Source: a bacterium
Lineage (GTDB): Bacteria; SAR324; NAC60-12
Assembly (NCBI GenBank): GCA_965205865.1
Contig: CBDBHR010000026.1
Coordinates: forward strand, 243,204-307,203
Direction of reading: 5' to 3'
Length of the DNA: 64,000 nt
Shown: positions 42,889 through 45,139 of the stretch, piece after piece
How positions within the stretch are numbered: position 1 is the stretch's first letter
How the letters are laid out: each line of letters begins with the position of its first letter
Position numbers and translations under genes: made by a program
The notes under the pieces: model-generated
What the model was told of the DNA's origin: nothing
Seen by the model: the letters and a program-made list of their open reading frames with translations, nothing else
Database searches by the model: none

Positions 42889-43091
42889 GGTACTCTTTCC
42901 ATAAAGTGACTCAATTTATCAGAAGTCCATTCGGGAATCAAATTTAATCTTATGATCCACGAAGGGCACGAAGGAAAGTATTATAGGTGCGCACCCTAAT
43001 TTACCGCGACTGGTCCATCCCCATTCCCTCATCAAATGATCGATTTTTCTGGGCTCCAAACTTTGGGAGGGGGTCAGGAGGGGGTCAGGCC

Positions 43092-45048
43092 GTGCGCCAG
43101 GAAAGCTGGCAAGAAATAGAGAGTGAAAGTCTCTTACTCGGTAAGGCAGTAACGACCCGCCGAGTCCCCGAGTCATGAGTGGTTATTCGCAAGGATAGGC
43201 GCTAAGCGTTGACAAGGGAGAACATAGGCTCGGTATCGAGCTCCGAAATCATAGTTTCAGGCGCTGACCTTGTGGTCTGGTGGGGAAGGCAATATCAACC
43301 GAAGGCGTTAGCGTGAGTCTCGGCTGAGCCTGGCGGAGTCAAAGACCCGGTGCATGTGTGGAAGTTTCTTGATCGGAACCTGGGAGATCCTAAAGACGAC
43401 TGTCAACATTCCATTGGTAGTCGGATCGGGAAAATTTATAAATAACCCCGATATCTACGTCTTCAGGAAGTCGGACAAGTTCGTAGTAGCGATGAAGCGG
43501 CGAACAATGAGATCATTTGTTGAGAGTAACAATGCAAAGGAAATCAACGGAGCCTGTGGAGCAAAGGGACTTGGCTGAGAGGAATTCTGCTTGCCCTCCT
43601 GTGTTCGGAACTCGGAGGCCGGTAAAATCAGAGAGCGGTTTAAGCAGGGTGCGCCAAAGGGCGAAGAGGACTCCCCATCTTCAATTCAACAATCTCTTTC
43701 ATCACATCAACCCTGACTTACTGCGGAGAGCTTACTTTGATCTCAATCGCAACTCAGCGGCGGGAGTGGACGAGGAGACCTGGAATGAGTATGGCATAAA
43801 TCTCCTGGAGCGGATTAACGATCTGCACGGGAGGATCCACCAAGAACGTTATCGTCCTCAGCCTTCTCTGCGAGTGTGGGTTCCTAAACCGGATGGCCGT
43901 CAAAGGCCAATCGGAATAGCCGCACTTGAAGACAAGATCGTACAACAAGCCCTCGTTTGGACGTTGGAATCGATCTATGAGGAGGATTTCCTTGGGTTTA
44001 GTTACGGGTTCCGACCCGGACGAAGCCAACATCAAGCCTTAGACGCTTTGTATGTGGCCATTACCCAACGGAAAGTGAGCTACATCTTAGATGCGGATAT
44101 TCAAGGATTTTTCGACACAATTCAGCATGATTGGATGCTGAAATTTATCAAGCATCGAATCTCCGACAAAAGGATTCTGCGTTTAGTAGAGAAAACGTTG
44201 CGCGCCGGAGTCATCGAAGATGGGAAGTGGTCTGAAACGGTGGTCGGAACACCACAAGGTTCGGTAGTTTCTCCAATCTATTCAAATATCTACCTGCACT
44301 ATGTTTTAGATCTATGGGTCAATCAATGGAGAAGGCGGGAAGCTCGGGGGGAAGTTTACATCATTCGCTATGCGGATGATTTCGTCGTGGGTTTTCAATA
44401 TTCTGAAGATGGCCAGAAATTTAATCGCCAACTAAGAGAACGCCTCTCTCAATTTGGACTGACTTTACATGAAGAGAAAACACGCCTCATCGAGTTCGGG
44501 CGATTTGCCGCCGATAACCGGGAAAAACAAGGTCTGGGAAAACCGGAAAGTTTCGACTTTTCAGGATTCACTCATGTCTGTGACACTCGGATAAAGGATG
44601 GAAAATTCAAGCTCACCCGTCTCACCATTTCCAAAAGGTTGCGAAAGAAGCTCAAAGAGATCAAACTTGAAGCGAAACGCAAACGTCATGAAAATGCGCA
44701 TGAACAAGGAAAATGGCTCAGGTCTGTTTTAAACGGTCTGTACAACTACTATGGAGTCCCCGGCAACCGGAGTTCCTTGAATGCTTTTCGCACGGAAATC
44801 CATCGGACGTGGTTCAAATCACTAAGACGGAGGAGTCACAAAGCAAAGAGGATGAACTGGGAACGCTTCAAAGTACTGGTCAAACTACACATTCCTTCTG
44901 TAAGGACAACCCACCCGTATCCGAATCAACGTTTGAGCGTCTGACTCGAAGCAGGAGCCGGATGCGTTAGCAGCGCACGTCCGGATTTGTACCGGAGGAA
45001 TGACGAAAGGTGGCTGGAAACCTCTATAAGTCAGTTCTTTACGGTGAC
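43092..45048 (+). mobile_element. Complete group II intron
   Basis: 5' GTGCG; DV GAGCCGGATGCG...CGCACGTCCGGATTTG at ~44956; 3' AC; flanks rejoin to a known repeat. Confidence 0.92.
43517..44944 (+). CDS. ltrA: Group II intron reverse transcriptase/maturase, no endonuclease domain
   Basis: AAGVD, PKPDG.QRPIGI, SYGFRPGRS, GTPQG, RYADDF, domain X; start uncertain. Confidence 0.95.
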   Translation: MLRVTMQRKSTEPVEQRDLAERNSACPPVFGTRRPVKSESGLSRVRQRAKRTPHLQFNNLFHHINPDLLRRAYFDLNRNSAAGVDEETWNEYGINLLERINDLHGRIHQERYRPQPSLRVWVPKPDGRQRPIGIAALEDKIVQQALVWTLESIYEEDFLGFSYGFRPGRSQHQALDALYVAITQRKVSYILDADIQGFFDTIQHDWMLKFIKHRISDKRILRLVEKTLRAGVIEDGKWSETVVGTPQGSVVSPIYSNIYLHYVLDLWVNQWRRREARGEVYIIRYADDFVVGFQYSEDGQKFNRQLRERLSQFGLTLHEEKTRLIEFGRFAADNREKQGLGKPESFDFSGFTHVCDTRIKDGKFKLTRLTISKRLRKKLKEIKLEAKRKRHENAHEQGKWLRSVLNGLYNYYGVPGNRSSLNAFRTEIHRTWFKSLRRRSHKAKRMNWERFKVLVKLHIPSVRTTHPYPNQRLSV

Positions 45049-45139
45049 TTTGATTATTTGATTAGGAATGAGTCCAGTTTTTTTGCCCCCATTTCATTTA
45101 ATCAAAGGCCTGACCCCCTTTAAGGCCTGACCCCCTTCC

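Follow-up and report, generated by a model that had tools for sequence, protein, structure and literature searches.

A group II intron that probably homes to the shared terminus of RayT-like Y1-transposase elements and derived hairpins in a SAR324 bacterium

The window analysed here, a stretch of 64,000 nucleotides from a bacterium of the SAR324 lineage (assembly GCA_965205865.1, contig CBDBHR010000026.1, positions 243,204 to 307,203, or C26:243204-307203 in our numbering), carries on its forward strand a full-length group II intron of 1957 nt at 43092..45048, which begins with GTGCG, ends with ACGGTGAC and lies within an 80-bp palindromic repeat, 11 nt in from the tip (coordinates without a contig name are window positions). 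The ribozyme, ~545 nt in size and with a small domain I, matches the Rfam family RF02005 (group-II-D1D4-6) at 43126-43348 (158.5 bits; gathering score, 49). Alignment to RF00029 places domain V at 44955..44988 (+), with its AGC triad at 44956-44958, and a long domain VI at 44990..45048 (+), with a bulged A at 45041 and the 3′ splice site after 45048. Between these ribozyme parts, an open reading frame (ORF) spanning 43517-44944, whose earliest ATG lies at 43532, encodes a reverse transcriptase (RT)/maturase of 470 aa (43532..44944, +) that scores 344 bits on TIGR04416 (group_II_RT_mat, cutoff 300) and has RVT_1 (127 bits) as its sole Pfam match; the Pfam scan reported no endonuclease (En) domain in this ORF. 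Among solved structures, the intron-encoded protein (IEP) is closest to 7uim, a group IIC protein (157 bits), and 6me0 scores 134 bits.

The left arm of the hairpin repeat contributes its outer 11 nt, GGGGTCAGGCC, as the 5′ exon (43081..43091, +), the last six nucleotides of which, CAGGCC at 43086-43091 (+), constitute the intron-binding site 1 (IBS1). The 3′ exon at 45049..45117 (+) holds the other 69 nt of the repeat and closes with the right arm, TAATCAAAGGCCTGACCCC, at 45099-45117. A sequence-only reading of this locus had pointed to this reverse complement of the terminus 50 bp beyond the intron and to a doubling of both arms, and both are present: a partial duplicate of the terminus, GGGGTCAGG, lies upstream of the 5′ exon at 43070..43078 (+), and the 11-mer recurs at 45107-45117 (-) and once more just outside the right arm at 45124..45134 (-), where the next letter on its own strand is T and where the copy is itself a potential target. 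Genome-wide, such doubling is the exception, an upstream partial copy within 22 nt (GGGGTCAG plus 3-4 nt plus GGGGTCAGGCY) accompanying 18 of the 138 exact sites described below; it may reflect the target choice of a Y1 transposase. The same reading had also noticed that excising 43092-45048 rebuilds a 22-mer found intact elsewhere in the window, and this holds exactly: GGGGTCAGGCCTTTGATTATTT occurs on the forward strand at 22939 and 41550, a reverse-strand copy at 45096-45117 differs from it in two positions, and three or more matches were reached in 0 of 100 shuffles. The places at 22939 and 41550 had been called empty targets. The 22-mer is indeed uninterrupted at both, but neither is an 80-bp palindrome; each is the right-end repeat of a deleted derivative of a 1206-bp element. 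The unoccupied target at 41550..42089 (+) is a 540-bp, internally deleted, chimeric RayT-like derivative with inverted GGGGTCAGGCC termini, and the one at 22939..23263 (+) comprises the right-end repeat and remnants of the 1206-bp RayT-like element family.

The nature of this terminus can be read from the genome as a whole (G000; 30 contigs, 4.74 Mb, 92% complete, 3.7% contamination). GGGGTCAGGCY is found at 138 exact sites, against ~3.5 expected from base composition (GGGGTCAGGCC 61 times and GGGGTCAGGCT 77 times, with ~1.7 and ~1.8 expected, respectively); the intron follows it at 24 of them, 110 are empty and continue with T, and the remaining 4 continue with another base. Followed by T, the motif is the outer end common to inverted-repeat-bounded elements of at least five or six families, with sizes of 52, 57, 66, 75, 80, 187, 221, 236, 367, 540, 722, 815, 1048, and 1206 bp, which are told apart by their inner terminal repeats (TTTGATTAWWT, TGCAAGTTTGCAAA, TGAAAGTTTGGAAA, TGCATAYTTGTATT, TCGYTATTTCG, and TGYGACTTTGGGAA). 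The smallest of these, the 52-80-bp elements, would form long hairpins as single-stranded DNA (folding z of -6.7 to -13.2; intact 80-bp copies -6.7 to -8.5), and those of 367 and 540 bp are derivatives with an internal deletion. The sequence-only reading had described the target as REP/MITE-like, that is, akin to repetitive extragenic palindromes (REP) or miniature inverted-repeat transposable elements (MITE); a multicopy palindromic repeat it is, but its narrower identity is the terminus of RayT-like Y1 elements.

Both the 1048-bp and the 1206-bp elements, bounded by inverted termini of 19-25 nt, code for a protein of ~330 aa with a Y1_Tnp (IS200-like) domain (4e-12, 46.8 bits, cutoff 23) and a C-terminal Bac_DnaA_C helix-turn-helix (1.5e-8) on Pfam; its top NCBIfam match, REP_Tyr_transpos (REP-associated tyrosine transposase, RAYT), scores 65.6 bits, under the cutoff of 80. 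Proteins with the Y1_Tnp and Bac_DnaA_C combination are abundant, more than 7,400 at E <= 1e-10 among 8,000 scored candidates, and their source names include “transposase,” “putative transposase,” and “REP element-mobilizing transposase RayT.” As in RAYT systems, in which short hairpin doublets of REP sequences are known as REPINs, the gene is flanked by inverted repeats that also occur as short hairpin doublets. Abstracts on RAYTs describe them as single-copy, domesticated transposases, one per repeat family, whereas the present genome holds nine near-full-length transposase genes (five of them within 25 kb on contig C29, ~47% identical to the query) alongside many deletion derivatives. In view of the nine genes, the Y1 elements, judged by their sequences, seem closer to active insertion sequences that have miniature derivatives than to the single-copy RAYTs.

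How the intron finds this terminus can be traced to a single loop. The exon-binding site 1 (EBS1), GGUCUG at 43274..43279 (+), occupies, in the Rfam alignment, the first hairpin loop within stem Id and pairs with CAGGCC of the 5′ exon with one G-U. That pairing had been proposed from the window alone, and alignment of domain I puts EBS1 in the same Id loop and not elsewhere. The position of the loop and its covariation with the exon together identify it. In a congener (G001), with introns 88-89% identical, the exons end in GGCT, and in a member of another genus of the same family (G008), with introns 82-87% identical, they end in AGGACAGCCA twice and AGGACAACCA once; the EBS1:IBS1 pairs are GGUCUG:CAGGCY, AGCCUG:CAGGCU, and UGGCUG:CAGCCA in the three genomes, so that exon positions -1 and -3 change jointly with loop positions 1 and 3. 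The comparison was extended to 37 loci coding for IEP relatives of 47-86% identity, in which the loop was located with a small covariance model and the 5′ splice site by alignment; 13 were left out as having their 5′ end outside the locus or as being interrupted or unplaceable. Among the 24 that were kept, EBS1 and IBS1 form six of six pairs in most and five of six in the rest, with no fewer than ten additional EBS1 sequences that each match the exon of their own locus (UGUCUG:CAGGCA, UGGGUG:CACCCA, UGAGCG:CGCUCA, UAAGCG:CGCUUA, UUAACG:CGUUAA, CGCCUG:CAGGCG, GGCUCG:CGAGCC, AGCUUG:CAAGCU, AGAGCG:CGCUCU, and CCUGCU:AGCAGG). Insertion invariably takes place right after the six bases of the CAGGCY type and before T.

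Beyond IBS1, a GG[A/T]C motif at -9..-6 is present in all three genomes and in 12 of the 24 distant loci, with a chance expectation of ~1/128 per locus and the caveat that copies from the same genome are non-independent. A second pairing resembling EBS2, between the loop of hairpin 1 (GACCC, 43153-43157) and GGGUC at -10..-6, was considered and rejected, since relatives with the exon GGGAC carry GAACC or AAGCC in that loop; the Rfam alignment offers no separate stem for EBS2 in Id, and the GACCC loop does not covary with exon position -7 in the relatives. In G008, a GUCCC loop in hairpin 1 facing the exon GGAC would seemingly permit such a pairing.

A BLAST search of the genome with the window intron, in which matches were chained into loci, recovered 48 intron loci with 41 5′ ends and 36 3′ ends; RF02005 has 44 matches above the gathering cutoff. 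Only four copies reach the full length of 1957 nt, with differences at 15-24 positions; the three others are 98.8-99.2% identical to the window copy, and all four retain an intact ORF frame of 473-477 aa. By far the commonest shortened form lacks the ORF through a deletion that joins intron nucleotides 571 and 1836, seen at 23 loci in different targets (13 of them uninterrupted, 689-692 nt), and a variant with nucleotide 574 joined to 1825-1828 accounts for four more; the ORF-less copies share 96.7-98.1% identity with the window copy. All 41 5′ junctions follow a GGGGTCAGGCY-like sequence. On the 3′ side, 27 of 36 junctions fall in recognisable repeat families, with TTTGATTA in 15, TGCAAGTT/TGAAAGTT in 5, TGCATAYT in 4, TCGYTA in 2, and TGYGACTT in 1, and the other nine, including one head-to-tail intron-intron junction, lie elsewhere. 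The 80-bp repeat itself is present in 28 copies, of which 12 are empty, 6 hold the intron in one arm type, 7 hold it in the other, and 3 are irregular; its asymmetric interior allows the arms to be distinguished, and in none of the 28 are both arms occupied. Intron copies also sit on the same strand 66-80 nt upstream of the start of five of the nine near-full-length transposase genes and of one partial gene. Taken together, the use of one exact position in many families and in both arms, and the recurrence of one deletion form over different targets, point to repeated, independent, site-specific insertion, and the occupancy pattern agrees with such insertion rather than with a single composite element having been copied. 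The ORF-deletion joint between 43661 and 44927 is represented in contigs from each of the four public sequencing runs consulted (two of RNA, two of unrecorded kind), and one contig bridges the 5′ intron junction.

The intron copies are themselves not exempt from insertion and rearrangement. About 3.5 kb upstream of the window start, at C26:239711/239712, two copies stand head to tail, one ending in ACGGTGAC and the next beginning with GTGCGCC, an arrangement expected from the copying of an intron circle or from template switching between intron RNAs. Outside the window, several copies contain, nested at intron nucleotides 396-406, one of two types of ORF-less insert of ~0.85-0.9 kb. Type 1 (C28:263300-264204, C29:627308-628212, C30:1206305-1207209, and C30:788638-789543; 99.9-100% identical to one another) and type 2 (C28:326617-327516 and C30:654282-655114) have ends that resemble those of group II introns, GTGAGC...CTACCCGGCAT in the former and a domain V-like GCCGGATGCG...CGTCCGGTTT in the latter; these composites are probably twintrons, in which the intron itself served as a homing site. 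A distinct second intron of the RF02005 type is represented by a single truncated copy, a 5′ fragment at C30:272498-272790 (73.5 bits). It is inserted after AGCCTGACC, on the complementary strand of the same terminus, and its loop GGUCAG can form a perfect 6-bp pairing there. Within the window, ~150 nt at 40809-40961 (-), which fall below the Rfam gathering threshold, are 84% identical to domain I of this second type.

The association of intron and terminus extends to other lineages. The congener, whose introns lie in the same repeat family, has 36 GGGGTCAGGCY sites against 3 of the reversed control, mostly in the GGCT form that matches its own EBS1 perfectly. G008 has no GGGGTCAGGCY site; it carries repeats that read AAAAAGGACAGCCA directly followed by TTGATTAAGT, a diverged form of the same terminus, and its introns follow AGGACAGCCA therein. 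The presence of close homologs in unrelated flanks, which would have told against a specific target, was thus not encountered in either genome. Farther afield, a metagenome-assembled genome (MAG) of Planctomycetaceae has three intron copies after GGAAGGGGGACAGGCG, one of them within a hairpin element of 68 bp and another within a ~480-bp derivative with remnants of a Y1 gene, and its motif GGGACAGGCR occurs 148 times against 31 for the control. In Psychrobium, the exon motif AAAAGGGACAGGCA occurs 18 times against once for the control, partly as inverted pairs ~108 bp apart. A Y1-like gene lies directly 3′ of the intron on the same strand in Psychrobium (Y1_Tnp 19.7 bits, below cutoff), in a Ca. 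Thiodiazotropha MAG (REP_Tyr_transpos 37 bits, below cutoff), and in a deltaproteobacterial MAG (Y1_Tnp 29.1 bits, above cutoff), whose 3′ exon resembles the TGCATATTGGTATT family of the host genome; loci L112, L094, and L088 have this arrangement. The exons of relatives from Acidobacteriota, Singulisphaera, Polaromonas, and others are unrelated. These comparisons provide good comparative evidence that the relationship between intron and transposon is old and has been tracked by EBS1. Another feature of the relatives concerns their 5′ ends, which in eleven loci (L084, L085, L101, L110, L096, L092, L087, L091, L108, L103, and L086) begin with GAAAGCG, GAUAGCG, or GAGCG and not with GUGYG; EBS1 still matches the exon set by that boundary.

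We consider it likely, with a probability of about 0.85, that the window element is a mobile, En-less group II intron that homes to the conserved outer end shared by a superfamily of RayT-like Y1 elements and by their hairpin derivatives, which resemble REPINs or MITEs. The idea that the intron homes into a multicopy palindromic element, put forward from the window alone, is thereby sustained by the uniform 5′ junctions, the predominance of repeat families at the 3′ junctions, and the many unoccupied sites that continue with T. Since the terminus is common to several repeat families, one specificity reaches more than 100 non-coding sites on both strands. In the proposed sequence of events, the RT/maturase of the few full-length copies would mobilise the many ORF-less copies in trans, and the intron ribonucleoprotein would reverse-splice into the site, after which a DNA copy could be made from a replication-fork primer, a pathway that the review by Zimmerly and Semper describes for En-less introns. 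The conserved GGWC at -9..-6 might act as an extra determinant read by the protein, or might simply be conserved in the transposon tip, and EBS1 would follow the terminus variant of each host lineage. Insertion into such non-coding sites presumably costs the host little; it may harm or regulate the transposon, because the intron parts the outer 11 nt from the remainder of the terminal repeat. The terms “low-cost” and “renewable,” which the sequence-only reading gave to the target, are a matter of interpretation.

Several observations weigh against this interpretation or temper it. At the level of the ribozyme, the RF00029 match to domains V and VI at 44953-45048 was obtained in a permissive scan and reaches 28.5 bits against a gathering score of 40; the GTGCG...AC boundaries and the bulged A at 45041 are nevertheless present. 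Within domain V, the same alignment sets G44957 opposite A44985, a G.A mismatch where a G.U pair is usual. The same GGAUC 3′ strand of domain V is shared by relatives from other phyla (including L083, L088, and L094), on account of which the mismatch is probably a lineage trait rather than damage. At the level of recognition, variation between GGUCUG and AGUCUG loops within the host genome correlates weakly with C or U at exon position -1, and, outside G000, G001, and G008, a Y1 gene lies beside the intron in 5 of ~30 loci with enough downstream sequence, with one of the five above the Pfam cutoff. At the level of mobility, the joint between 43091 and 45049 expected of ligated exons or an empty site was found in none of the contigs of the four runs, a read set that is indecisive on this point, and the bias of the intron's sense strand toward the locally G-rich strand is weak (30 of 46 loci, 30 vs 16, with a noisy skew of ~0.01-0.03). 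Finally, copy numbers of repeats are estimates given the fragmentation, completeness, and contamination of the assembly, and at least some of the intron copies stem from DNA duplication or recombination, as the long 5′ flanks shared by C28:358767 and C29:409363 indicate.

This last point leads to the possibility that the intron entered a single repeat once and was thereafter a passenger, with recombination or the Y1 transposase spreading the repeat-intron composite at the DNA level. In its favor, the repeats themselves resemble mobile elements, two or more intron loci have identical 5′ flanks of 40 nt, and the cluster of five RayT-like elements within 25 kb on C29 suggests a segmental duplication there. 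A single composite, however, would not be expected in at least five repeat families with differing inner repeats, in elements from 80 bp to more than 1 kb, nor in both arms of the asymmetric 80-bp repeat, and the same ORF deletion junction is found across the families; incongruence between the intron phylogeny and that of the repeat families is already suggested, and the covariation of EBS1 with the exon across genera and phyla is not predicted by DNA copying. We therefore regard this scenario as very improbable for the population as a whole. Similarly improbable would be targeting directed by structure, in the manner of class C introns, in which a DNA hairpin is recognised and the sequence match is secondary. 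The small domain I, the lack of an EBS2 stem in the alignment, the group IIC protein heading the list of solved IEP relatives (7uim at 157 bits, 6me0 at 134), and targets that are palindromes able to fold as single-stranded DNA all speak in its favor. Yet the intron is inserted within the ascending (5′) arm of the palindrome and not 3′ of a stem-loop, and the 50-nt 5′ flanks are unstructured (mean z of 0.05, 0/41 with z < -2), which makes the terminator or attC mode of class C introns inapplicable. Termini more than 1 kb from their partner, which flank transposase genes, are used as well, and IBS1 is a covarying 6-mer, whereas IIC introns have been described as having an incomplete EBS1 motif.

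Homing could also be an accurate account of the past and not of the present, all copies being fossils of a bygone burst with none now active. Many copies are truncated, rearranged, or split by nested introns, and the four runs, indecisive as they are, yielded neither a spliced nor an empty-site junction for the window locus. Against this stand the few differences and intact frames of the four full-length copies, the 96.7-98.1% identity of the ORF-less copies to the window copy, and the vacancy of about half of one repeat family; we deem extinction of the intron unlikely. An extension of the homing model in the opposite direction, toward a long history, appears somewhat short of an even bet. 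The En-less clade might be a long-standing specialist of RayT-like (Y1_Tnp plus DnaA_C) transposons, spanning at least the deltaproteobacteria-like family, Planctomycetes, and several Gammaproteobacteria, in which GGWC at -9..-6 would be kept as a fixed anchor while EBS1 is retuned to the terminal motif of each host. Such a specialist may prefer a sense-orientation seat in the leader of the transposase gene, which would tie expression of the intron to that of the transposase and could gate transposition, and intron and transposon may both exploit single-stranded DNA at replication forks.

Group II introns hide in other mobile DNA, and RmInt1 of Sinorhizobium meliloti, an En-less intron, reportedly homes into the insertion sequence ISRm2011-2. 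Introns of this kind appear to be the nearest functional analogue of the present one, by virtue of an En-less IEP, a home inside another mobile element, a high copy number, and a presumed fork-primed pathway. The differences lie in the target, here an 11-nt terminal motif of several Y1 families and their miniatures rather than a gene in one insertion sequence, in the EBS2 pairing, here not found, and in the prevalence of ORF-less copies.

Class C (IIC) introns, described as inserting after terminators or into integron attC sites, likewise combine a small ribozyme and an En-less IEP with repeated palindromic non-coding DNA as a safe haven; the present intron differs in having no upstream stem-loop, a covarying 6-bp EBS1-IBS1 pairing, and a seat in the ascending arm. 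The long domain VI and the ribozyme size of ~545 nt would fit classes E and F as described in PMC3753933, and the 6-bp IBS1 and the taxon range also recall these classes; the description places both EBS1 and EBS2 in domain Id and IBS2 directly upstream of IBS1, whereas here EBS1 was found and EBS2 was not. Control genomes gave no match to RF02005 and hence no hint on class. Mobile elements landing in REP-type repeats have a precedent in Pseudomonas putida KT2440, for which a table of Tobes and Pareja (2006; PMC1525189) counts two of nine group II intron copies as REP-associated; in the present genome, 27 of the 36 3′ junctions fall within repeat families, at one fixed nucleotide, and base pairing explains the choice. 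A few ORF-bearing and many ORF-less copies in one genome are likewise reported for Thermosynechococcus elongatus by Mohr et al. (2010; PMC2882425), the distinction being that the copies described here have a single specificity in common, for the terminus of a multicopy repeat. In IStrons (PMC4227781), a group I intron is joined to a transposon of the IS200/IS605 family, so that a self-splicing intron is likewise tied physically to a Y1-transposase element, but they are fused units moved by a transposase, unlike the group II retroelement considered here, which enters the transposon end independently.

What seems to be new is the homing site itself, the shared tip of a superfamily of transposons and miniature repeats. 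The Zimmerly and Semper review names ordinary homing sites, terminators, and attC sites as target types, and a literature search of open-access papers, in which earlier mentions may have escaped notice, brought up no lineage of group II introns dedicated to RAYT/REPIN or Y1-transposon termini. With such a site, a single intron specificity would gain more than 100 neutral sites on both strands, which would explain how the intron reached ~48 copies in a 4.7-Mb genome. The lineages compared would furnish a natural case of EBS1 retargeting along with the host element, and a parasite-on-parasite relationship would join the biology of REPINs and RAYTs to that of retroelements. The naturally ORF-less form, a compact ribozyme of ~690 nt with a defined 11-nt target, could be of use for studies of mobility.

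Two further features of the window concern neither the intron nor its targets. The Acido-Lenti-1 RNA motif has four matches (45.8-50.5 bits) in two inverted pairs, at 10223-10268 (-) and 10434-10479 (+) and at 17906-17951 (-) and 18117-18162 (+), with the members of each pair 161 nt apart and each pair within one unit of a ~7.68-kb tandem duplication. Some 30 kb apart, 2010-2769 and 32927-33699 form inverted repeats of ~700 nt in pieces, 89-96% complementary.

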